The notes beneath the pieces were generated by a model. It had not been told where the DNA came from and ran no database searches. It worked only from the letters and a program-made list of their open reading frames with translations. 39,344 bases of DNA. Origin: a virus. Taxonomy: Duplodnaviria > Heunggongvirae > Uroviricota > Caudoviricetes. Below, one piece after another: positions 4,748 to 28,010 of the stretch; positions within the stretch are counted from its first letter, which is position 1; each line of letters starts with the position of its first letter. The position numbers were made by a program, and so were the translations under genes. The DNA lies in IMG/VR virus record IMGVR_UViG_645058835_000004, positions 1 through 39,344 of that record; one strand, written 5' to 3'.

Positions 4748-7700
4748 GCGTCGTATCCCCCCTGATCGCTGTAGTTACTCCTGGCTTTTGCCTTCAGCCT
4801 GCGTTCACGTTCATCAAGCTGGCGGGCCACCTCCCGCGCAATATCCTGCGCACTTTGTCCTGGCTGCGTCTGGATGATGATCTGCGTCGGTGCCTCAATG
4901 CTGTAAACGGGCGGCACAGTGGCTGCGCGACTCACCATCGCTTCTCCACCTTTCGCGGGAAGTGCCAAAGGGTGCAACGGTGGAAGCTCTGCTGGCGCGG
5001 CAGCAACGCCCATCATTCCGGCAACAACGGCAGCCAGTGCAGCTGTATTTCTCCGGCTGGTCACGTTTGCCGGACCGTTGACAATTTCAGGCCCGTTTTC
5101 ACCGACGATGCCAAACTGCCCGTACGGGATATACCCACCGCTGTCATACATCCCCGCAAAGCCATATCCCCATGACGGGAAACCACCCGATGGCATCATC
5201 ACTTTACCGTCTGCATTCACCGTCGCAGGTTGCTGACGCGTCACGCTTTCCGGCAGTTTTGCCTTTGCGGCCTCTTTACTGACAATGCCGAGTTTCTCCA
5301 GCAACCAGGAAACGCCGGATTTCAGGGAGTCCAGCGGATGCATGACCATATTCAGCCCTTCCGCCAGTGCCTCCCCGAATCGTCGCCCCATTGCCGCTGC
5401 GCTCTGCAGTTCGGCAGAGGTCGACTTAACGGGCGTCAGCAGATCAGTAAACCAGCCCCACAACGCCTGCACTTTGTCGCCAATCCACTGAAACACAGGC
5501 TTAAGTGGTTCGAATGCTGCACTGACGGGACCTGCCGCCGCTTTGAATCCTTCCACCACGCCACCGAGAAATGCGGTGATGGGTTGCCAGTATTTCCAGA
5601 CAACCAGCGCCACGCCCGCCAGTGCAGTAACCACAAGACCTATCGGACTGAGCAGAGCACCTAACAGACCAGATACGGCATACAGGGCAATGCGCAACAT
5701 CGCCAGCGGGCCGGATGCGAGCACACGCAGCACCGCGCCTGCGGCAGCCAGCCCACCGCGTAGTGCTGCCAGTGGATTCATAAACATCACAGCAACAGCA
5801 CGTAAACCGGATAATCCAGACCGCAAAAGTGCAACCGGCGCACCTGCTACAGTTTTCAGGACATTCCCCGTCAGTGATGCCGTGCGACGCAAAGATGACA
5901 ACGGAGCAGTAAGTAAACCCGCTGCGTTGCCCGATGAAGCAAGCCCGCGTCGCAGCAGTGCCAGTGGTGCGCCAGCCAGCCAGGACAACGCGCTGCTGGT
6001 TCGAGTTACTGCTGCCGTAACAGAAGGTAACGTTTTGATACCCAGCACAGAGAATCCCAGACGGATCACTGCCAGCGGCCCCAGCACTGCAGCCAGCGCC
6101 ACCGCTAAGGTGCCGAGGCCTACGGTAACCGCAGCCACAACAGCCGCTACTTTCATCAGTGTGCCTGTCAGTTCCGGGTTGGCTTCCACCCAGCGGCGCA
6201 ACGCCCCCGTAATGCTTTTCACCGTGTACAGAATATCCATCAGCGGCTGGCGCAACGTTTCGCCCAGGCTGCTGAAGGTGTTCTGCGCTCCGGTTTTGAC
6301 CAGCAACCACTGAGCAGAAAGTGAGTCTTTGTTGATGTCGGATTCTTTCTGCATGGAACCGAGCGCATCATTGCCCGCTGTCAGCTTTAGCTGGCGCTGC
6401 AGTTCCGGAAGGTTGTTTGCCAGTTTCGCCGCGTCATCACCAAACTCTTTACCAAACAACATGGTCATGGCAGACAGACGCTTGTCCTGCGGCAGTGCGT
6501 TCACCTTCTCCAGCACACGCTGGATAGTTCCCATCGCATCCTTCGTCATCTGCTTTTCAATCACTTCAGGATTGAGTTTCAGCAGATTCATCCCTTCAAA
6601 GAAACTCTTGCTTTGCATGGTGGCAATGGACAATTCACGCACCATCGCGTTTGCTGCACTGGCTGCAACCTCCGGCGCAGCGCCCAGTGTCAGAAAGGTG
6701 GAACCCAGTGCCGCCGCTTTACGATAATCCAGACGGTCAGCCACACCGCCCAGACGTTGCATCACATCAATGATGTCCGCCCCTTTCGACATGGCGTTAT
6801 CATCCAGATAGTTCAGCGCATCGCCGAGCTGTTCAATATTGCGGGTAGGTATTTTGTAGAGCTGGGCGATTTTCCCCAGACTTTCTGACAGTTCATCCGC
6901 TGGCAGCTCAAAGGCTGTTGCCGCCTTTGCTGCCGTACTGGCGAAGGCCAGCAGGTCACGTTTCTGGTCTTCCCAGCTGTCGTCAGGGTTTGCGACGTTC
7001 ATGCGCGCACCACCTTCAACCAGTGCAGCGAAGTCCACCGCACCGTTTTCCATCGGCAACTGTTCGCTGGCAGCCTTGATGGCATCCTGCATTTCATAAA
7101 AACGTGCAGTGCGGTTGCCATTATCGTCACGCAGACCATTGACCTGCTTTGCCACACCTTTCATGGCATCTTCCATGCTGGTATAGCTTTTTACTGCCGC
7201 CATCACTGGCGTCCCCATTGCCAGCCCTGCAGCCGTGGTGGTGGCTCCGGCTCCTGCGATGCGATCGCGCACCTCCAGCGAACGGGCATAACTGGCACGC
7301 GCTGCATTCATCCTGCGCTGAGCTTCCCCCAGTCGCTTCAGCCGCGCCTCCTGTTTCGACAGTTCCTGGTTATAACGTGATGTTTCACGGGCTAAACGGG
7401 CAGTTGCTCCCGCATCATCTTTCGCAGAAATTCCCGCCCGGTACAGTTCTGCACGCACAAGCGCCGTTTGCTTCTGCAAATATTTTTGTTGTTCTTCCAG
7501 ACGTTGGACTGCCAGCGTTTGCCGACCTAAAGCTACAAGGTGCCGTTGTGATGGTTGTTCCATCGACTCCAGCTCAGAGCTAAGCAAATTAGCCTTCTGT
7601 CTGGCATAGTTCAGCCTGTCGCCTAACTTCTTGTTATCGGCCTGCAGCTTGCGAAATTTTTCCAGGCTGTTACCCGCCTGATTGAGTTGCTTTAATGCGT

Positions 7701-7821
7701 CACGGGAGTTTCTGATTGCGCCAGCCAGCTCTTTCGAACTGGCCTGTGCAGCACGGAATGGGCGGGTGAGTTTGTCAACCGCATTAAGAATGACCTGCAG
7801 CCGCAGGTTATTATCACTCAT
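4744..7821 (-). CDS. Tail tape measure protein gpT
   Basis: 1025-aa ORF, N-terminal coiled-coil-like region then Ala/Gly-rich hydrophobic repeats; follows E/E' as in P2. Confidence 0.9.
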   Translation of the reverse strand: MSDNNLRLQVILNAVDKLTRPFRAAQASSKELAGAIRNSRDALKQLNQAGNSLEKFRKLQADNKKLGDRLNYARQKANLLSSELESMEQPSQRHLVALGRQTLAVQRLEEQQKYLQKQTALVRAELYRAGISAKDDAGATARLARETSRYNQELSKQEARLKRLGEAQRRMNAARASYARSLEVRDRIAGAGATTTAAGLAMGTPVMAAVKSYTSMEDAMKGVAKQVNGLRDDNGNRTARFYEMQDAIKAASEQLPMENGAVDFAALVEGGARMNVANPDDSWEDQKRDLLAFASTAAKAATAFELPADELSESLGKIAQLYKIPTRNIEQLGDALNYLDDNAMSKGADIIDVMQRLGGVADRLDYRKAAALGSTFLTLGAAPEVAASAANAMVRELSIATMQSKSFFEGMNLLKLNPEVIEKQMTKDAMGTIQRVLEKVNALPQDKRLSAMTMLFGKEFGDDAAKLANNLPELQRQLKLTAGNDALGSMQKESDINKDSLSAQWLLVKTGAQNTFSSLGETLRQPLMDILYTVKSITGALRRWVEANPELTGTLMKVAAVVAAVTVGLGTLAVALAAVLGPLAVIRLGFSVLGIKTLPSVTAAVTRTSSALSWLAGAPLALLRRGLASSGNAAGLLTAPLSSLRRTASLTGNVLKTVAGAPVALLRSGLSGLRAVAVMFMNPLAALRGGLAAAGAVLRVLASGPLAMLRIALYAVSGLLGALLSPIGLVVTALAGVALVVWKYWQPITAFLGGVVEGFKAAAGPVSAAFEPLKPVFQWIGDKVQALWGWFTDLLTPVKSTSAELQSAAAMGRRFGEALAEGLNMVMHPLDSLKSGVSWLLEKLGIVSKEAAKAKLPESVTRQQPATVNADGKVMMPSGGFPSWGYGFAGMYDSGGYIPYGQFGIVGENGPEIVNGPANVTSRRNTAALAAVVAGMMGVAAAPAELPPLHPLALPAKGGEAMVSRAATVPPVYSIEAPTQIIIQTQPGQSAQDIAREVARQLDERERRLKAKARSNYSDQGGYDA

Positions 7822-8250
7822 CGTTGGCCCCGCTTCTCTGAATCGCTTTATACCGCCATTCCAGCACTTCGGTCAGCGGCATAACGTCAGTAACGGATGG
7901 CGGCCAGTGAAAAATGGTGGCGATATCTGCCACCAGATCGTCAACCGTCAGGCTGTCGGTAAACCGGCAAGCACCGACTTCTTCAACAAAAAAGTGACAA
8001 CCTCAACCGACATGGCAGTGAGATCTGCCGGGTCCATCTCTGCAATTTCCTGTGCAGTCAGTGCCGGACTGGAGATACGGGGGATCACGGTCATCATCGC
8101 GTTCACATCCATATCCATAATGGCCTGCAGGCGTGTACCGCGCAGCGCACCGGAATGCGGTTTACGCAGCACAATTTCGGTGATTTCTGTTTTACCGCGC
8201 TTGATGGGGGTATCCAGTTGAATAGTCTTTTCAGTCTGCTTATCGCTCAT
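7814..8250 (-). CDS. Tail assembly chaperone gpE+E' (programmed -1 frameshift product)
   Basis: mRNA heptamer U UUU UUG (plus-strand CAAAAAA at 7987-7993) in the gpE frame; hand translation of the -1 frame runs open to a TGA at 7814-7816, just downstream of the T start codon (7819-7821). Confidence 0.7.
7948..8250 (-). CDS. Tail assembly chaperone gpE (zero-frame product)
   Basis: 100-aa ORF between FII and T, ending ...VTFLLKKSVLAGLPTA; contains the slippery heptamer. Confidence 0.8.
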   Translation of the reverse strand: MSDKQTEKTIQLDTPIKRGKTEITEIVLRKPHSGALRGTRLQAIMDMDVNAMMTVIPRISSPALTAQEIAEMDPADLTAMSVEVVTFLLKKSVLAGLPTA

Positions 8251-8304
8251 TTTGCTGTCCTGTAAATTGGGTTCTGGCGCGGTATCCCGCGCCGTTCAGA
8301 TACA

Positions 8305-8820
8305 TCAGAGGCCGAGGGCGTTGCGGTGCGCTTCCATCAGGTCCACACCGTCCACAATTTCCACCATGTTGATAAGGTCCACTTCATAGAGCACCTCACC
8401 ATTTATAGTCAGCTTCGCGTAGCTGTTGGTACTGGTCACTTTGGTGGTGTTGCTTTCGCCCGTCTTCCACTCGCCGGAATCCACTTCTTTGTGACGTCCA
8501 CGCACCACAAGCTCCACAGCCTGCACTTCCCCGGTATCGTCACGCTGGATAGAGCCGGTAAAGCGCAGCTGGATGCCATCCACCGTAGCTTTGCCCATCT
8601 GTTTAAACAGCAGCAGTTCAGTACCACCAATGGAAAATTCTGTGTCCAGCGCACTGTCATCAAGCCCCAGATCCACATCCACTGCACCCGGCATTCCGCC
8701 GCCGCGATACTTCTCATATTTGCGGGTGAATTTCGGCAGCGTCAGCGACTCAACGATCCCCTGCCAGTTGTTCCCGTCATTAAACAGGTTCAGGTGTTTT
8801 AATTTGCGTGGTAAAGCCAT
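8305..8820 (-). CDS. Tail tube protein gpFII
   Basis: 171-aa ORF immediately downstream of the sheath gene; P2 FII-like. Confidence 0.9.
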   Translation of the reverse strand: MALPRKLKHLNLFNDGNNWQGIVESLTLPKFTRKYEKYRGGGMPGAVDVDLGLDDSALDTEFSIGGTELLLFKQMGKATVDGIQLRFTGSIQRDDTGEVQAVELVVRGRHKEVDSGEWKTGESNTTKVTSTNSYAKLTINGEVLYEVDLINMVEIVDGVDLMEAHRNALGL

Positions 8821-10002: not shown

Positions 10003-10077
10003 AAGGCAGTCTCTCCGGTTGTAGAGGGGGTCTGCCTATGTTCTGGTTGATACACGCAGGGTGCACGCGATGGGGGT

Positions 10078-10095
10078 TGTATGGAAAATGGCACA
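10078..10095 (-). promoter_or_regulatory. Candidate Ogr-dependent late promoter element (PF) upstream of FI
   Basis: TGT-N12-ACA dyad (TGTatggaaaatggcACA); with the element at -64..-47 the TSS falls near 10031, about 29 nt before the FI ATG. Confidence 0.5.
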
Positions 10096-10103
10096 ACGAC
10101 GGG

Positions 10104-10129
10104 GTGAAAAAATCCCCGCAGGCGCGGGG
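10104..10129 (-). terminator. Rho-independent terminator after the tail-fibre operon (downstream of G)
   Basis: GC stem CCCCGC/GCGGGG (10114-10119 and 10124-10129) followed on the minus strand by UUUUUU (plus-strand A-run 10105-10110); begins 8 nt after the G stop. Confidence 0.5.
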
Positions 10130-10136
10130 CAGGAAT

Positions 10137-13894: not shown

Positions 13895-14240
13895 TCTCTG
13901 CTCCTGTTGATACGGAAAGGGAAACAGGCACACCGTTATTCCGCCGCCCGGTCAGCTCCACCACCATTGAACCGTCAAAATTGCTGTTGATGGTGATGGA
14001 ATCCAGCGTCAGCCGTGGCTCCCAGCGACTCAGCGCCACATACACTGCCGACATGACCTGCAGACGTAATGCCGGATTTTGTGGCTGGTCTACCAGTGCC
14101 GACAGCAGGGAACCATATTCACGACGGGCAATACGGCTACCCTGCGGTGTCAGCAGAATGTCCCGCACCGACTGGCGCAGATGGTCAATATCAGTAATGG
14201 CTTTACCGCTGGTATTGTTCATCCCGCTATAAAGCGTCAT
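13881..14240 (-). CDS. Baseplate wedge protein gpW
   Basis: 119-aa ORF between V and J. Confidence 0.8.
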   Translation of the reverse strand: MTLYSGMNNTSGKAITDIDHLRQSVRDILLTPQGSRIARREYGSLLSALVDQPQNPALRLQVMSAVYVALSRWEPRLTLDSITINSNFDGSMVVELTGRRNNGVPVSLSVSTGAENGSD

Positions 14241-14815
14241 ACCGGGCCTCCGGTTGTGTCGCCGCCTTTCAGGACGCCAGTATGCTGATGTGCATCAACC
14301 ACAATTCCGTTAGAACTCATTGCACCGCCGCCCTGGGTAACGCCACCATTGATCACCACTTCGCTGTTAATACGCGAGCGGTCAGCCTCCAGCACAAACT
14401 CACTGGTTTTCAGGGTAATGTTGTTGGCAGCCTCAATGACCATGGATTTGATGCCCCTGACATACCAGCGCCCGGTAGCGGGTTCATATTCAAACCAGCC
14501 ACCGTCAGGATGTTCTGTCACACAGGCGTCCACCGACGCCGACGGTGGTGCGAACTGATTCGAATAGACAGCGGGCAGCGCAAAGGCGGTTTCCAGATTA
14601 CCGCCCAGACTCAGCAGCACCACCTGCTCACCTTCTGATGGTTTCCACCATGTGCGGGCATTGCCCGCGCGCAGTGTCAGCCAGTTAATCCAGTTGGTTT
14701 CAAGGTCGCCTGTTTTCACCCGGCAAAGCCAGTTCTCCCGGTCCACTTCGGTGACTACCCCAGTGCGGATCAGGTTGGTGATAAGGCGCATGATTTCGGT
14801 TAATTGTGCGTTCAT
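14237..14815 (-). CDS. Baseplate spike/hub protein gpV
   Basis: 192-aa ORF, N-terminus MNAQLTEIMRLITNLIRTGVV... resembles P2 gpV; first gene of the V-W-J-I-H-G operon. Confidence 0.85.
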   Translation of the reverse strand: MNAQLTEIMRLITNLIRTGVVTEVDRENWLCRVKTGDLETNWINWLTLRAGNARTWWKPSEGEQVVLLSLGGNLETAFALPAVYSNQFAPPSASVDACVTEHPDGGWFEYEPATGRWYVRGIKSMVIEAANNITLKTSEFVLEADRSRINSEVVINGGVTQGGGAMSSNGIVVDAHQHTGVLKGGDTTGGPV

Positions 14816-14861
14816 AATTTAATCATGCTGATTTAAGATTGATAAAAAAACTCTTTAGTTT

Positions 14862-14879
14862 TGTGCCAGTTATGATACA
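14862..14879. promoter_or_regulatory. TGT-N12-ACA dyad in the V / cargo divergent intergenic region (possible late promoter element; geometry ambiguous)
   Basis: TGTgccagttatgatACA; centre is ~55 bp from the V ATG, which does not leave a normal leader for either flanking gene. Confidence 0.25.
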
Positions 14880-14915
14880 AAGTGCATTTACTCATGGACT
14901 AAATAAAGGATTCCT

Positions 14916-16175
14916 ATGTTTAGATTATCTAGTGTCAAGATTGAAGGTTTTTGGGGAAGACTAAATGCATCATGTTCATTTAATGAAGATGTAAATATTA
15001 TTATTGGTCGAAATGGGACCGGTAAAACAACCTTTATGAATATTCTTCACTCAGTTCTGGCATTAGAACTTGAATCGTTAAATGAGAATAGTTTTGATAA
15101 TGTAACAATAAAAATAAAAGAAGGAAGCAAAACTAAAACAATAAAAGTTGTGAGTAAATTTGACATAACTAAGGCTTTGCCTACGTTTGAATATACAATT
15201 TCTAGAAAGAAATATATTATCAGATCCTTTGAAGATCGTAGGCTGCCTATATATATGAGGAGAAAATATCAGGAAGACGTTGAAAAACTTAAGTTAGAGC
15301 TAGATAAATTAGTTGCTTTATCTTCTCTATCAGTTTACCGACTTAGAAGCGGTGAAGATTTTGAAATCAGAGACAAATATGGCTCAAAATTAATCAACCC
15401 CGTTGATTACCGATTAGAACAATTATTGCAGAATCTAACAAAATATCAGCTTTACTTATCACAAAGAGCTCGTGATGTTTCTGCAAAATTACAGAAAGAG
15501 GTTCTTGCTTCTATTCTTTATAGTAAAGAAGATGGTATCGATGACACATTTAACTTTTCTTTTGATAAAGAAAAAGAACGTAGAAATTTAATAGCTGCAT
15601 ATTCTCAACTTGGAGCTTTTGATAGTGATGTCAGAAAGAAGATTAACTTTCACGTTGAATCTATTGCCAATACATTTGAAGAACTACGACTTGCAGAAAA
15701 AAACAACAGAAATATTTTAAATGTAGATTACAGATCATTTGAGGCATTACGAAAGACGCAAAGAATTATAAAGATGTCTTTAAAATCCGAGGAGGAAATA
15801 AAAAACATATTTCTTCCTATAAATCTATTTTTAGAAACATTACATGAGTTCATAACCGATAAAAAATTTAATTTTATCTCCGGTGAGCTAGTAATAGAAA
15901 ACGAGCATGGGCCGATTAGCCATAGTAATTTATCGTCTGGAGAAAAACAGCTATTAATTCTTTTTATTGAAACTTTGCTACAGCAAAACAAACCTTTCAT
16001 CTATCTTACTGATGAACCAGAATTATCACTACATATTGCATGGCAACGAAAAATAATACCTGCAATCAAACAACTTAACCCTAACGCACAAATTATCGCC
16101 GCTACGCATTCACCAGAAGTGGCCTCTAAATATCGAAATGCAATCTTTGATATGGAGAAATTGGTTCATGGATGA
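14916..16175 (+). CDS. ABC-type (SMC/RecF-like) ATPase, PARIS AriA-like candidate
   Basis: 419-aa AT-rich ORF: Walker A GRNGTGKTT (aa 31-39), signature-like LSSGEKQ, Walker B FIYLTDEPE, H-loop ATHSPE; opposite strand to the flanking tail genes. Confidence 0.6.
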   Translation: MFRLSSVKIEGFWGRLNASCSFNEDVNIIIGRNGTGKTTFMNILHSVLALELESLNENSFDNVTIKIKEGSKTKTIKVVSKFDITKALPTFEYTISRKKYIIRSFEDRRLPIYMRRKYQEDVEKLKLELDKLVALSSLSVYRLRSGEDFEIRDKYGSKLINPVDYRLEQLLQNLTKYQLYLSQRARDVSAKLQKEVLASILYSKEDGIDDTFNFSFDKEKERRNLIAAYSQLGAFDSDVRKKINFHVESIANTFEELRLAEKNNRNILNVDYRSFEALRKTQRIIKMSLKSEEEIKNIFLPINLFLETLHEFITDKKFNFISGELVIENEHGPISHSNLSSGEKQLLILFIETLLQQNKPFIYLTDEPELSLHIAWQRKIIPAIKQLNPNAQIIAATHSPEVASKYRNAIFDMEKLVHG

Positions 16176-17019
16176 TTTCCATTATTCTGCCGAAGCAGAA
16201 AATGTAATGAATTTATTTTACCAAGCTGAAGCCATGGTTTATGTTGAAGGCCCAGATGATATTTGCTTTTGGGAAATCATCTTTAATAAAGCTAGTTCAT
16301 TAAAGGTTGAAATCAAAGATGTTGGCGGCTGTGAAGAATTAAAAAAATATATTGATAGAGTTACTGATGAAGATCTTCAAATTATTATTGCATGTGATGC
16401 AGACTTCACTACATTTGAAAATGAAGAAAACGCTGATAGTCGTATTGTAAAAACTTATGGGCACTCCATCGAAAACACATTTATTGACAAAACAGGCATA
16501 TATAAGGCAATAAAAACTCTCGGGAAATTACCGCAAAAGATAATGAACGATGTCAACATCGATTCTTGGACAGAAGACTTTTATACCAAAATGGAACCCC
16601 TAATAAAACTTGATATATACAATCATATTTATAGAAAAGGCATTTCAGTTATTGGTGACAGTGCAGATCGTTTCATGAAATCTAGAAAATCAAATGAAAT
16701 TTGCGAGCAAAAAATCACGGATTACAAAAACACCATTATTGAAAAATTAGGTGTGGAACCAGATAACATCGATTCATCTTTCAAATCAAAATCGATAGAA
16801 TACAGAAAGTGGCTTAGAGGTCATTTTCTTTTTTCTGCAGTACATAGGTACATTAGCACAACTGCAGAAAAAAATGGAAAAAAAGTATCCTTATCATATG
16901 AATCACTATATTCCAATTTAATGAATACATTTGAATCTAATTTTACCAATACTCATATTGAGTTTAATCATTACCACGAAAAAATCAAAGCCATAAATAT
17001 GCCACACGAAATGAAATAA
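16138..17019 (+). CDS. Toprim/DUF4435-like nuclease partner, PARIS AriB-like candidate
   Basis: 293-aa ORF (alternative ATG at 16168 overlaps the upstream stop as ATGGATGA); N-terminal YVEGPDD glutamate motif and a later IIIACDADF (DxD) motif consistent with an OLD-type Toprim; AT-rich. Confidence 0.55.
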   Translation: MQSLIWRNWFMDDFHYSAEAENVMNLFYQAEAMVYVEGPDDICFWEIIFNKASSLKVEIKDVGGCEELKKYIDRVTDEDLQIIIACDADFTTFENEENADSRIVKTYGHSIENTFIDKTGIYKAIKTLGKLPQKIMNDVNIDSWTEDFYTKMEPLIKLDIYNHIYRKGISVIGDSADRFMKSRKSNEICEQKITDYKNTIIEKLGVEPDNIDSSFKSKSIEYRKWLRGHFLFSAVHRYISTTAEKNGKKVSLSYESLYSNLMNTFESNFTNTHIEFNHYHEKIKAINMPHEMK

Positions 17020-17044
17020 GAAAAAATACAGATGTATTTTTATA

Positions 17045-17491
17045 TTATTTAGATAACCATTCAAATAGGGTATCCTTGATTTGATAATATTCTTTATCGT
17101 GGATACCCAATAGCTTACGCTCTGCGTAACGGACCTCCGGTCCTTTGCGGCTGACGCGATCACGTAAGCCGTAGTGATGAACACGGGCAATGCGCTGTAC
17201 CTTGCCTTCAAACTGCACGCTGGCAGAATCGGCGCTGGCGGCAGTTTTCAGGTATTTTGTGGTGCGCAGCTTTGCAAACATCTGACGTTTGATACGGCCT
17301 TTTTTACTGCGCGCTGTGACCTTGCGCGGTTCATAACTGCTGCCATCAGGGTTGCGCTGCATCCTGATATTCTGCTGCTGTGTCCGGCGTAGTTCCTGCG
17401 CCAGCTGGCGCATCATGCGGCTTCTTGCGGCTGGCTCCAGATTCGCCAATAATGCACTCAGCCAGTCGTCCACCTTCTGCAATTCAGCCAC
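17045..17491 (-). CDS. Tail completion protein gpS
   Basis: 148-aa ORF downstream of R; P2 S-like. Confidence 0.85.
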   Translation of the reverse strand: MAELQKVDDWLSALLANLEPAARSRMMRQLAQELRRTQQQNIRMQRNPDGSSYEPRKVTARSKKGRIKRQMFAKLRTTKYLKTAASADSASVQFEGKVQRIARVHHYGLRDRVSRKGPEVRYAERKLLGIHDKEYYQIKDTLFEWLSK

Positions 17492-22554: not shown

Positions 22555-22572
22555 TGTACCGACAACCACACA
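22555..22572. promoter_or_regulatory. Candidate Ogr-dependent late promoter element in the O/P divergent region (geometry fits PO)
   Basis: TGT-N12-ACA dyad (TGTaccgacaaccacACA); as -64..-47 of a minus-strand promoter the TSS is ~22508, 32 nt before the O ATG. Confidence 0.45.
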
Positions 22573-25463: not shown

Positions 25464-26009
25464 TTAAAATCTACGCCTAAATCCTAGTTTCTCACCCGGT
25501 GTCATTGCCCTACCGACCGCTCCTTCTAATAAATGAGTGTTGTTCTGTAAATGCTCGCGAGCCCACGGCTGCAAATTGAAAGCGAATCCGTCAATCATAC
25601 TGCCCACGTTTGCAGCTCTATAGGTTATGCGCTTAGCAACCAACCCCCCCATAACACCATCTTCAGGACCACACATTAGTGAGTTTTCGCCATCAATTAT
25701 ATAAGACCAGAGGTATCCCTTCTCCTCAGGAGTTAGCTTCTCCAAATAAGAGATACGTACTTTGTGCCTTTGTCTATCGCCATATAGGTCATGAAAAAAC
25801 TGATATACTCTTGCAACTAAAAAAGAGACAGCCAGTAAAAATGCTGGTCCTATGAAATTTCTATATTCTTTACGGAAACCATCAACCGCAACTTTAGAAG
25901 CTAAAGATTCTGGCAAAAAAAGGATCAAACTTAAACCACATGTAATAGCTACAAGAAGTGCCGTTGGAATCTTTCTAAAAAAATCCAATAATCCAGTAAT
26001 AGCATCCAT
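25464..26009 (-). CDS. Small membrane protein, moron between Q and cos (possible superinfection-exclusion-type protein)
   Basis: 181-aa ORF with two N-terminal hydrophobic segments and a soluble C-terminal domain; lower GC than the flanking backbone. Confidence 0.5.
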   Translation of the reverse strand: MDAITGLLDFFRKIPTALLVAITCGLSLILFLPESLASKVAVDGFRKEYRNFIGPAFLLAVSFLVARVYQFFHDLYGDRQRHKVRISYLEKLTPEEKGYLWSYIIDGENSLMCGPEDGVMGGLVAKRITYRAANVGSMIDGFAFNLQPWAREHLQNNTHLLEGAVGRAMTPGEKLGFRRRF

Positions 26010-26095
26010 TTATTTACACCTCAATATGCTCAAAAAACCGCGTCAAATTCTACCTCATAACCTTACTAAAAACACCGTATCCCCATCAGCGCGCG

Positions 26096-26114
26096 CTCGT
26101 ATCCCCGCCACGCC
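26096..26114 (-). other. Candidate cos site (cohesive-end region)
   Basis: Minus-strand GGCGTGGCGGGGATACGAG resembles the P2 cohesive end GGCGAGGCGGGGAAAGCAC as I recall it (14 of 19 identical); lies distal to Q; direct repeat CGTATCCCC 23 bp away. Confidence 0.45.
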
Positions 26115-26432
26115 TGCCCGCTTTATGTAGTGGTTTTCATGCACCTGCATGTTCTACGTAAAAGCCCGCTAGTTCTGGCGAGCCTTAGCAAAAACGATCC
26201 TTAAACGATCATGCGATTTCATGCAGCATAGTCATGCACTGTCTAAGAGAAGTGAAAGTCCCTGAATGACCACTTGAAAAACGAAACATACAGACTTACA
26301 AAGATGAAGCTCTACTGTGAGCGAGGAACATACATAGTTGCTCTGTAATAGCCAAATTTTAAGCAGGAAATCTCTTTTTTATGACAAAACTATAAAGAAA
26401 AACAGACCGTTTCATCGCTCGATGAAAATATA

Positions 26433-28010
26433 CTACAATACTTTTCTCTCGATGGTATTTTTAATGGTCAACATATCTTTAGGAATACTTTTTTTCCCCT
26501 CTATACGTATGGTAAACACAAAAAGAATAACTGCTGATCTCACAATTTTCATGAGTTGTAAGAGCTGTTTCTCAAACTTTTCTTTCTCAATAAATCTCAC
26601 CTCATCAAAAAATCCATAAGAATTATATAAATCAACTAACATGTCTTTCTCGTGAATAACTAACAGTTTATGTTCTAAATCATTCCTCCATTCTTTAAAA
26701 AAAGCAAGCTCACCATTTTTATCATTCAAATCCATAGCAATACTAAACAAACCCAGCAATCCTTTATTATTTATTTTGTTTATTTTAAGCTTTCTTTTTT
26801 CATCACTAATCCGCCAGAAGTTATGAAAGTATATATGTCCTCTATCTGGTTTTAAATCAAATAATTGACACAGAGCAACTGCTATTTTATCCAAGATACC
26901 AAAGCAAGCTCTAAATGCAACCCTTAACTTCTCAACATTTTCATACAATATTTCTCCATTATACAATTCAGAATAACATACCTCCGAATCCTCATCAAAA
27001 AACTCACTATCAACCTTATATTCAAAAAACATTTTTCGTGCTAAGGAATACTCAGCTTTAAGTCTATTTAACACCATTTCCATTGGCACTATAAAATCAC
27101 CAAACACACCTTCCTCGGTGGTAGCAATAGTTATATTATCTTTAGATGACGCATAACAATTGCAATATAGCGAATGATCAGACAACATTAGATTATTATC
27201 TATACAAAACCTCTGGTAGTTTGATAAAGTATCATACTCCTCCTGCGTGAGCCTTTCATCTGTACTTATATCCTCTATGCCATATACACATGATTCACTC
27301 AATATACTTTCGTTGTACTTTATTTTTCTTTGAAGAGCAACCTTCCATGAAGGAAAACATTTCCCTGACTTTATTGCACACTCATAACCTCGAATAACTT
27401 CTTTAATCATTTTATATGTATATGTTGTAGATAATTCATTAAGCAATTCTAATGCCTCAGATCTGTTTACCCACGCCTGAGGAATTGAGTTATCAATAGA
27501 TATTGCTTGTTCATAATAATCCATTGATTCAGATATACGATATTGTTTTTTTAATACATTAGCTAGATTAACTATTAAATCAGGGGGCACCCATCCATCT
27601 TCTTGTGAAAGTTTAAACGCTTTCCAGTAATTATTTTTTACATCATTCAGCTTAATGAAACTATCAATATCTGCATTGTCATTAGGATTAAAATCAAGAA
27701 CTGCGCTCATTCCATTTGCCAAGTTATAGTAATATAAGGATTCTTTCATTATAGTCAGAAATTCATTTTTATTGTTTATAAAGATATTTAAGCCTTCCTC
27801 CGCTATATTTTTTACATTACTAAAACTTCCGATATCAATAAGATTTCCGGCCAAATTAGATAATATAATTATTCTATTTTCTTTGATTGTATTTATCTCA
27901 TCGATACCGTTAAGAATATCCTTTACATTTTTATAGGCAGAATCAAATGAACCTGCATTAATAAGATCATCTACGAACCCCATTTTTGAAACAACATAGT
28001 TGATATCCAT
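26433..28010 (-). CDS. Cargo protein with TPR-like repeats and C-terminal HEPN-like RNxxxH motif (candidate abortive-infection/defence RNase)
   Basis: 525-aa strongly AT-rich ORF at the P2 old/tin-equivalent position; TPR-like helical segments; motif WRNDLEH (R442-H447, approx. 26670-26687). Confidence 0.5.
   Translation of the reverse strand: MDINYVVSKMGFVDDLINAGSFDSAYKNVKDILNGIDEINTIKENRIIILSNLAGNLIDIGSFSNVKNIAEEGLNIFINNKNEFLTIMKESLYYYNLANGMSAVLDFNPNDNADIDSFIKLNDVKNNYWKAFKLSQEDGWVPPDLIVNLANVLKKQYRISESMDYYEQAISIDNSIPQAWVNRSEALELLNELSTTYTYKMIKEVIRGYECAIKSGKCFPSWKVALQRKIKYNESILSESCVYGIEDISTDERLTQEEYDTLSNYQRFCIDNNLMLSDHSLYCNCYASSKDNITIATTEEGVFGDFIVPMEMVLNRLKAEYSLARKMFFEYKVDSEFFDEDSEVCYSELYNGEILYENVEKLRVAFRACFGILDKIAVALCQLFDLKPDRGHIYFHNFWRISDEKRKLKINKINNKGLLGLFSIAMDLNDKNGELAFFKEWRNDLEHKLLVIHEKDMLVDLYNSYGFFDEVRFIEKEKFEKQLLQLMKIVRSAVILFVFTIRIEGKKSIPKDMLTIKNTIERKVL

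Follow-up and report, generated by a model that had tools for sequence, protein, structure and literature searches.

The window, i.e., the whole stretch of 39,344 nucleotides that was analysed, belongs to a P2-like prophage of E. coli, in which an insert of two overlapping and intact + strand genes lies between the baseplate gene V and the tail-completion gene S. The genes of this region are given below.

14237..14815, - strand: V, the baseplate spike gene, first of the VWJIHG late operon (Pfam Phage_base_V, 1.1e-17, with Apex).
14916..16175, + strand: ariA-like gene, 419 aa, 48.7 kDa, ABC/SMC-head-type ATPase (ORF, Pfam, PADLOC, PDB phmmer and fold).
16168..17019, + strand: ariB-like gene, 283 aa, 33.0 kDa, predicted DUF4435/Toprim nuclease (ORF, Pfam, PADLOC and fold).
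17045..17491, - strand: S, the tail completion gene, last of the ONMLKRS late operon (Pfam Phage_tail_S, 2.3e-41, and annotation).

ON470620 and RefSeq E. coli genomes also carry the gpV annotation for the left flank, and the structure of the ONMLKRS operon has been described (PMC3931495). The two inserted genes are transcribed in the direction opposing the late operons, and the 2.2-kb slot has no space for further genes. The GC content is 0.30–0.34 over 15001–17000 compared with 0.50–0.60 in the flanks, and the profile matches of the flanks place the insert at the position of P2 orf30 (PMC6823313, PMC3091744); the initial annotation, which had described an AT-rich insert in the orf30 slot between V and S, was correct on both points. 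Copies of the insert with 98% identity are present in 18 complete E. coli genomes and one deposited phage record. A chance origin of the ORFs was ruled out because they are long at 30% GC, have significant profile matches and are conserved across genera.

The first gene encodes the 419-aa ABC-type ATPase that had been proposed, and its motifs, GRNGTGKT (Walker A, K37), LSSGEKQ at 339–345 (signature), DEPE (Walker B, D366/E367) and ATHS (H-loop, H398), are invariant among 45 homologues, K37 and E367 included. In the HMMER alignment with AriA of E. coli B185, K37 pairs with K39 and E367 with E393, both of which are functionally essential for defence in the B185 system (PMC11464382). The best PADLOC model for the ATPase is AriA (1.1e-38), and the top match of a phmmer search of the PDB is AriA (8ux9_B, 6.6e-17), with PtuA behind at approximately 1e-7. 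The AF2 model has a pLDDT of 80.7, which corresponds to moderate confidence only; with this model, the top 15 Foldseek matches are AriA chains (E from 1.1e-18 to 1.1e-12, TM 0.50–0.62), and PtuA comes next (3e-12, TM 0.44). The AriA fold is that of a Rad50/SMC-like head into which helices are inserted.

The longest ORF of the second gene extends over 16138–17019 on the + strand and corresponds to 293 aa. The true start is almost certainly 16168, which gives 283 aa: it produces an 8-nt overlap with the ariA stop, has GGAG 10 nt upstream, and fits both the nearly invariant M1 in the family alignment and the start annotated in ON470620. The gene had been described as encoding an OLD-type Toprim protein of ~290 aa; the motifs named for it, the glutamate of YVEGPDD and a later DxD, are present and invariant, and its length is revised by the moved start. 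In the 283-aa numbering, the motifs are YVEGPDD (E27, D31), ACDAD (D77, D79) and IEN (E102), and these five acidic residues are invariant across 50 family members, with a family consensus of VEGxDDICFWE around the catalytic Glu. Their order and spacing resemble those of E26, D30, D88, E90 and E122 of AriB, as a pattern match rather than a residue superposition.

The DUF4435 match of the second protein reaches 89.8 bits and covers profile positions 4–234 of 238, which indicates a full-length domain, and the best PADLOC model is AriB (2.6e-24). Neither Pfam nor PADLOC finds an HNH domain in it, so that it is not Septu-like. Sequence searches of the PDB, performed with the single sequence and with a 50-member profile, returned nothing relevant and no AriB; among the PDB searches, the link to AriB comes only from the fold comparison, in which the AriB fold, a Toprim core with a helical dimerisation region, is the closest solved fold. 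The C-terminal regions of OLD proteins are the second-best match, and GajA ranks 14th (E 0.5).

The MacSyFinder rule for PARIS consists of an adjacent ATPase and DUF4435 protein with scores of at least 32 bits for AAA_15, 27 bits for AAA_21 and 27 bits for DUF4435 (PMC9122126). The window pair scores 66.5, 81.7 and 89.8 bits, respectively, and the two genes overlap by 8 nt. By profile, fold and catalytic residues, both proteins are members of the AriA and AriB families, and the PARIS-like reading of the initial annotation is thus supported by profiles, PADLOC, PDB sequence, fold and the invariant catalytic residues; its description of a split ATPase/Toprim architecture, unlike fused OLD or GajA, agrees with the two separate genes. 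The insert is probably a PARIS (AriA/AriB) anti-phage system, divergent in sequence, with both genes intact; it occupies the S-V (orf30) slot as a moron and reads against the late operons.

The ATPase also matches the PADLOC models of PtuA (2.8e-23) and mad3 (2.4e-21) and the NCBIfam PtuA model (6.2e-18, far under the cut-off of 500 of that model), and these matches would be expected if the pair were another ATPase and nuclease system, such as Septu, a retron-associated PtuAB, Gabija, a classical OLD or a MADS fragment. These ABC ATPases are all related, however, and AriA stands above PtuA in every comparison. Furthermore, the partner is a DUF4435 protein without HNH, the slot contains no helicase, reverse transcriptase or additional mad gene, and the ATPase and Toprim domains are on separate polypeptides, unlike in OLD and GajA. 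Septu, Gabija, OLD, MADS and retron-PtuAB were rejected on domain content and ranking, and the probability left to them is negligible.

In all 8 relatives looked up, which come from 8 genera, the ATPase gene is followed by a DUF4435 gene of 277–285 aa. The junction is an 8-nt overlap in 5 of the 8, and the others have an 11-nt overlap, a 14-nt overlap and a 9-nt gap. The relatives are found at three different P2 cargo sites and in a non-phage chromosome; within the same PARIS clade, the pair occurs in other P2-like prophages, at the known A-Q hotspot in Xenorhabdus and adjacent to CI in Yersinia. The two genes form a mobile unit that is conserved. PARIS has been reported from 5.2% of prokaryotic genomes and described as frequent in viral genomes (PMC9122126, PMC11464382). 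The suggestion that its presence here extends PARIS beyond the P4-satellite hotspots was therefore overstated, as PARIS is often viral, the orf30 slot is a classical one and relatives lie in other P2-like prophages.

Compared with the characterised PARIS of E. coli B185, the window system has the same two-gene cassette of an ABC ATPase followed by a DUF4435/Toprim gene, the B185 proteins are the closest solved folds for both window proteins (PDB 8ux9, 8v45-8v49), and the two systems share the Walker A Lys, the Walker B Glu and the five acidic residues of the Toprim site; both have a low GC content and are carried in E. coli by mobile elements of viral origin. However, the window AriA is 419 aa against 464 aa, i.e., ~45 residues shorter, the identity to B185 AriA/AriB is only 15–19%, and AriB has no sequence-level match. 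The positions of R28 and R31 of AriB correspond to P29 and I32 in the window protein by a simple offset from E26/E27, not by superposition, and the two arginines appear not to be conserved. In B185, these residues form salt bridges to AriA, which assembles there into a hexamer that binds AriB (PMC11464382), and on this offset mapping the AriA-AriB interface may differ from that of B185. The B185 system was described at a hotspot of a P4-like satellite (Rousset et al. 2022, PMC9122126; Burman et al. 2024, PMC11464382), whereas that of the window is located in the S-V late-gene slot of a P2-like helper prophage.

A mechanism can be proposed by analogy with B185 (PMC11464382, PMC12409363). In the lysogen, an ATP-bound AriA multimer would scaffold AriB monomers and keep them inactive. 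A protein of an infecting phage would bind AriA in an ATP-dependent manner, AriB would be freed and then dimerise, and its predicted Toprim site (E27/D31/D77/D79/E102) would cut host tRNAs, by which translation would stop and the infection would be aborted. The triggers in B185 are acidic anti-restriction or DNA-mimic proteins, e.g., T7 Ocr and T5 Ptr1/Ptr2 (PMC11464382, PMC12409363). Because the identity is so low, the trigger(s) and RNA target(s) of the window's clade may differ from those of B185.

A larger departure, in which a PARIS-like architecture senses a cue other than anti-restriction and/or cuts DNA or an RNA other than tRNA-Lys/Thr/Asn, is rather unlikely, although the low identity and the lack of a sequence-level PDB match for the second protein are in its favour. 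In 8 of 8 pairs, the AriB partner diverges faster than AriA by 12–20 identity points, which fits a changing specificity. The next closest folds of the second protein, moreover, are those of OLD-family nucleases, and OLD and GajA cut DNA.

Another reading takes the pair as mainly an addiction module of toxin-antitoxin type, in which AriA would be the antitoxin to the toxin AriB and which would stabilise the cassette or the prophage. PDB 8v45 and 8v46 are deposited as 'AriA antitoxin', the Pfam description of AAA_21, the best model for the ATPase, is that of a putative AbiEii toxin/type IV TA domain, and the cassette is compact and moves among mobile contexts. However, AriB of B185 has only mild toxicity by itself and trigger-dependent defence has been demonstrated (PMC11464382), and the other cargoes of the slot include a defence-type ApeA-like protein and a fused AriAB; an addiction module is therefore highly improbable here, and the PARIS defence system is preferred.

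The same ATPase and Toprim domains are found in related systems in other arrangements. In the S-V slot of another P2-like contig (L059), they are fused in a 598-aa protein (PADLOC AriAB 1.1e-25, which also scores on GajA models), unlike the two overlapping genes of the window. P2 Old, the OLD nucleases and GajA share the logic of an ABC ATPase with a Toprim nuclease; in OLD proteins (P2 Old, classes 1 and 2) both are on a single polypeptide, whereas they are separate in the window. P2 Old is likewise a moron of P2, and it acts in the exclusion of other phages. Gabija differs in combining a fused GajA with a UvrD-like helicase, GajB, and the window slot has separate domains and no helicase gene. 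Septu and retron PtuA/PtuB have a related ABC/SMC-head ATPase but an HNH effector in place of DUF4435/Toprim. P2 orf30 is alike in its S-V position and as horizontally acquired, AT-rich, non-essential cargo; however, it is 261 bp of unknown function, and the corresponding ORF of R18C is 741 bp, whereas a defence system of two genes can be recognised in the window slot. PARIS is well understood and the pair would be labelled by standard defence finders, so that the picture of bacterial immunity is unchanged. As a divergent clade at 15–19% identity to the one characterised system, it is a natural case for variation in trigger range and tRNA target within the family.

The edges of the cassette carry the following features.

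14816..14915, no strand: divergent V-ariA intergenic region of 100 bp, with V leftwards and ariA rightwards (from the sequence).
14862..14879, no strand: TGT-N12-ACA dyad TGTGCCAGTTATGATACA, the Ogr-box signature of the late promoter PV (from position and the conserved distance to V).
17020..17044, no strand: ariB-S spacer of 25 bp between convergent stops, with an 8-bp A/T-only hairpin at 17022–17041 and A and T runs beside it.
17045..17107, - strand: cassette-specific 3' end of S, the last ~20 codons, ending in ...IHDKEYYQIKDTLFEWLSK before the stop codon; right-hand boundary at which the exchangeable module recombines.

An AAGGA ribosome-binding site is located 7 nt before the ariA ATG, and the V-ariA intergenic region presumably carries the ariAB promoter. 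A scan of this region found no consensus sigma-70 promoter, and its matches were fewer than in shuffled controls. The PV dyad, which follows the TGT-N12-ACA consensus of the Ogr box (PMC3931495), is separated by 46 nt from the ATG of V and by 36 nt from that of ariA. One such dyad is present 45–48 nt from the V ATG in 12 of 12 S-V site classes, empty sites included, and the 75 nt upstream of V are otherwise just 32% identical across these classes. Further dyads of the window lie at the positions expected for PO/PP (22555, 22613) and PF (10078). As the 11 dyads in the window are close to the number expected by chance (39344/4096, ~10), the PV call rests on position, with four expected late-promoter sites matched, and on the distance to the V ATG.

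The spacer hairpin has ViennaRNA energies of −5.0 kcal/mol on the + strand and −4.4 kcal/mol on the - strand and is, by this predicted structure, a weak candidate for a bidirectional terminator. It was missed by the terminator scan, which requires at least 3 G-C pairs; the two terminator-like sites that the scan gave are inside ariB and are at chance expectation. The identity of S to other S genes is ~90–100% and then ~40% over the last 60–90 nt, and the gpS C-termini vary by cargo class past a conserved RYAER[KR]LLG. Judged from these alignments, every cassette comes with a putative PV of its own and likewise with its own version of the final ~20 codons of S.

The orf30 locus is listed as one of three classical moron regions in P2-like phages by Nilsson et al. 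(2004) and Christie & Calendar, as far as they are cited in PMC6823313 and PMC3091744. The occupancy of the S-V slot was surveyed in 80 loci whose gpS is closest to that of the window and was counted on 79. The slot is empty (71–74 bp) in 57 of the 79 P2-like loci, and 21 have inserts, which fall into ~11 size classes of differing cargo with a GC content of 0.31–0.35. A 306-bp 'gap' in one locus (L033) was regarded as artefactual, arising from truncation of the V match, and not as an insert. PADLOC and Pfam name only ApeA-like, AriAB, DUF6216 and a sub-threshold HNH_5 among the alternative cargoes and give no annotation for five cargo classes. The unannotated cargo proteins of the slot have 231, 245, 250, 271, 304, 481 and 503 aa. 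An Rx4H motif near the C-terminus is shared by three of the unannotated cargoes and the ApeA-like protein annotated by PADLOC. With many cargoes, mostly without annotation, the slot is a cheap site at which to search for further defence genes.

These data could be read jointly to mean that the S-V slot is a distinct, uncharted defence hotspot of P2-like phages, at which self-contained cassettes of cargo, PV and gpS tail are swapped, the cargo expression is coupled to Ogr and the unannotated cargoes are new defence genes; taken as a whole, this is doubtful. The main hotspot studies focused on the Q-A and Z/fun sites. A 2026 preprint on P2/P4 hotspots has already reported defence hotspots within the P2 late genes; all ten matches to 'PARIS' in its text are the city named in affiliations and acknowledgements, not the system. 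If the joint reading were true, the Ogr box 36 nt from the divergent ariA would tie cargo expression to the late switch of the prophage, and PARIS might, for example, be lowered or raised in the lytic phase of the P2-like phage itself, sparing its growth. The prophage of the window has cargo at three sites: the S-V slot contains PARIS, the Q-A region contains SieB and a HEPN protein, and the interval between repressor and integrase contains PDC-M11.

The left end of the window is E. coli chromosome, in which ybjL, ybjM and grxA are recognised at 99.9% identity; an ogr-like gene comes next, and the pair under study is flanked by the genes for gpV and gpS. Together these features identify the window as a P2-like prophage of E. 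coli. These flanks confirm the placement made in the initial annotation, between the tail-completion gene S and the baseplate gene V, which is where P2 has orf30 (PMC6823313; PMC3091744). The GC content forms a sharp trough of 0.30–0.34 at the two genes, with 0.50–0.60 in both flanks.

The candidate PARIS pair and its flanking genes
14237-14815, minus strand: gpV, with Phage_base_V and the Apex motif
14916-16175, plus strand: ORF1 (ariA-like), 419 aa as called
16138-17019, plus strand: ORF2 (ariB-like), 293 aa as the longest ORF
17045-17491, minus strand: gpS, with Phage_tail_S

The true start of ORF2 is most likely 16168, giving 283 aa, because this start produces an 8-nt overlap with the ORF1 stop that is identical in five of the eight relatives examined (the remaining three show an 11-nt overlap, a 14-nt overlap and a 9-nt gap), has GGAG 10 nt upstream, corresponds to the first residue of the ORF2 family alignment and agrees with the start annotated in the phage record ON470620. 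Where ariB and S converge, a weak A/T hairpin separates their stop codons.

The initial annotation had read the two genes as a PARIS-like ATPase and a Toprim/DUF4435 protein. In the Pfam search, ORF1 matched AAA_21 at 81.7 bits and AAA_15 at 66.5 bits, and ORF2 is a full-length DUF4435 protein (89.8 bits), in which the HNH domain expected of a Septu-type partner was looked for and found to be absent. The top PADLOC model is AriA for ORF1 (1.1e-38), with PtuA and mad3 ranking below, and AriB for ORF2 (2.6e-24 and 1.3e-9). The published detection rule likewise assigns the pair to PARIS. The identification was right, and ORF1 and ORF2 probably constitute a PARIS-family system.

Among solved structures, the best sequence match to ORF1 is AriA from E. 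coli B185 (6.6e-17), PtuA being weaker by about ten orders of magnitude. The AlphaFold model of ORF1 (pLDDT 80.7) gave the same ranking in the structure search, where the first 15 matches are all AriA chains (E = 1e-18 to 1e-12, TM about 0.6), ahead of the PtuA ATPases of retron and Septu systems, which begin at 3e-12. The catalytic sites of the pair are intact. K37 and E367 of ORF1 align with K39 (Walker A) and E393 (Walker B) of B185 AriA, both of which are needed for PARIS function (PMC11464382). The invariant acidic residues of the ORF2 family, E27, D31, D77, D79 and E102, resemble the metal-binding set of B185 AriB, E26, D30, D88, E90 and E122. No sequence-level match of ORF2 to any solved structure was found, even with a 50-member profile.

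By homology with B185 PARIS, an ATP-bound AriA scaffold would sequester AriB, and the binding of a phage protein to AriA would set AriB free; the AriB dimer would then cleave tRNAs, so that translation is arrested and the infection aborted (PMC11464382, PMC12409363). Complex formation, trigger, target and protection are thus proposed for the present pair by analogy, and confidence in this detailed mechanism is lower than in family membership. Caution is counselled by the identity of only 15–19% between this pair and the B185 proteins, and by the arginines of B185 AriB contacting AriA, which appear to have no counterpart in ORF2.

The gene pair is conserved. Eight relatives were looked up, with identities to the window's proteins of 43–77% for AriA and 31–58% for AriB. 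In all eight, the ATPase gene is followed by a DUF4435 gene encoding 277–285 aa; the genes overlap by 8–14 nt in seven and are 9 nt apart in Pasteurella. The catalytic motifs are retained, and the GC content of the pair is below that of its surroundings. A second E. coli allele and the relative in Edwardsiella occupy the S-V slot of P2-like prophages, that in Xenorhabdus the A-Q hotspot of such a prophage, and that in Yersinia adjoins the CI repressor of a P2-like prophage, while those in Pasteurella, Aeromonas, Shewanella and Marinobacter lie in plain or IS-flanked chromosome. Because the pairing is constant in eight of eight relatives while the contexts differ, the ariA/ariB pair is a mobile two-gene cassette.

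The conservation of AriA, the presumed sensor, exceeds that of the nuclease effector AriB by 12–20 identity points in all eight pairs (comparison loci L082-L092 against window 14916-17019), for example 77% vs 58%, 64% vs 45% and 50% vs 38%. The database search found more than 2,500 relatives of the ATPase against 51 of the nuclease, a gap that may come in part from the word-index sensitivity of the search. The second, diverged E. coli allele of this PARIS clade (L092/L093:5001-7101; AriA 63%, AriB 45% identity) is found in the S-V slot on at least 19 contigs.

Slot occupancy was determined in 80 viral contigs of P2-like type, collected with gpS as the anchor; both S and V are present in 79 of them. 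The slot is empty in 57 of the 79 (71–74-bp gap), carries an insert in 21 and is ambiguous in one. The inserts fall into 11 size classes, every one with a GC content of 0.31–0.35, and the exact PARIS pair of the window is present in three loci. Other cargoes are an ApeA-like protein (PADLOC 1.4e-13), a membrane protein with DUF6216, another predicted one of 250 aa without family match, a protein whose HNH_5 match is weak and below threshold, a 503-aa P-loop protein and several further proteins without a PADLOC or Pfam match. A fused AriAB-type protein of 598 aa (comparison locus L059:6439-8403), for which AriAB is the best PADLOC model (1.1e-25) and which also matches GajA models and AAA_15, occupies the same slot; therefore, one site alternates between split and fused PARIS-type systems.

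An Rx4H motif, a hallmark of HEPN RNases, was read by eye near the C-terminus of four unrelated cargoes (L013, L021, L023 and L026; inserts at about 6440-8340) of 584, 245, 304 and 481 aa, as RNNIVH, RDTGVH, RHSLFH and RNIIIH; only the 584-aa protein, the ApeA-like one, has a family match. The ApeA-like cargo is a single ORF in L013 and is broken into ORFs of 195 and 372 aa in L024:6445-8337, apparently a decaying copy because of a frameshift.

The left edge of all cassettes adjoins the V start codon. One TGT-N12-ACA dyad lies 45–48 nt from the V ATG in all slot classes, the empty site included, although across the classes the surrounding 75 nt otherwise average only 32% identity. The four P2 late promoters that depend on Ogr (PP, PO, PV and PF) have this dyad as their consensus (PMC3931495), and other well-placed dyads in the window occur at 22555 and 22613 between O and P and at 10078 upstream of FI. 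From the consensus, the conserved distance and these late-promoter positions, the dyad at 14862-14879 is identified as PV. The right edge lies inside S, where the last approximately 20 codons vary with the cargo class after a conserved RYAER[KR]LLG; exchange of a cassette therefore also changes the C-terminal end of gpS, a structural protein. These edges define an exchangeable module of about 14816-17107, in which the cargo is accompanied by the S tail and by its own copy of PV; it sits where the ONMLKRS operon ends and the VWJIHG operon begins. The ariA gene starts 36 nt away from this Ogr box, in divergent direction, and the promoter scan found no consensus promoter for ariAB. The mosaic 3′ end of S (window 17045-17107; L005-L059 at about 6385-6447) keeps a loose x-D-x-L-x-x-W-L pattern, with gpS lengths of 147–154 aa across loci. 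The Z/fun slot (10003-10136), between the tail-fibre assembly gene G and the sheath gene FI, is empty here; its sole content is the dyad at 10078, which fits PF.

The pair is a further member of an already known system in an already known slot: P2-like phages have three classical moron regions, and the orf30 site is one of them (PMC6823313; PMC3091744). The suggested extension of PARIS beyond P4 satellites adds only a little information, since 5.2% of genomes were reported to have PARIS and it is frequently encoded by viruses (PMC9122126; PMC11464382). Among studies of hotspots, the Q-A site was analysed by Rousset et al. 2022, Q-A and Z/fun by Vassallo et al. 2022, and both with a tail-CI site in the iLund4u preprint; further hotspots, 'within the late genes' and 'downstream of GpL', come from a preprint of 2026, which does not name S-V. 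A more novel but improbable reading would make the S-V slot a so far unmapped hotspot of defence genes, with expression of its cargo tied to the Ogr-dependent late switch. Of 5,426 complete E. coli genomes, 18 have the same insert, and among the matches listed its genes are annotated no further than 'AAA family ATPase' and 'DUF4435 domain-containing protein'. The insert also occurs in one phage record already deposited (ON470620), where the labels are 'putative enzyme with ATPase activity' and 'hypothetical protein'.

Two further AT-rich islands were observed, at the Q-A (old/tin) hotspot (25464-28010, GC 0.28–0.40) and between the CI repressor and the integrase (36030-38234, GC about 0.30).

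Proteins of the two further islands
within 25464-28010, minus strand: SieB-like superinfection-exclusion protein, 181 aa (PF14163, 2.2e-22)
within 25464-28010, minus strand: 525-aa protein with C-terminal LA2681-like HEPN domain (PF18733, 1.8e-38)
within 36030-38234, plus strand: 260-aa protein, weak DUF3644 match
within 36030-38234, plus strand: 356-aa protein, PADLOC candidate PDC-M11A (2.4e-130)
within 36030-38234, plus strand: 127-aa ASCH protein overlapping the 356-aa gene, PDC-M11B (4.9e-48)

No PADLOC model matched the SieB-like or the 525-aa HEPN protein. As the third island adds to the S-V slot and the Q-A hotspot, a single prophage carries cargo at three sites. The longest ORF of the CI-type repressor (35073-36029, plus strand) encodes 318 aa with two separate Phage_CI_repr matches, whereas the related phage ON470620 has an annotated repressor of about 199 aa; the long form could be an over-extended ORF call or contain a duplicated N-terminal domain.
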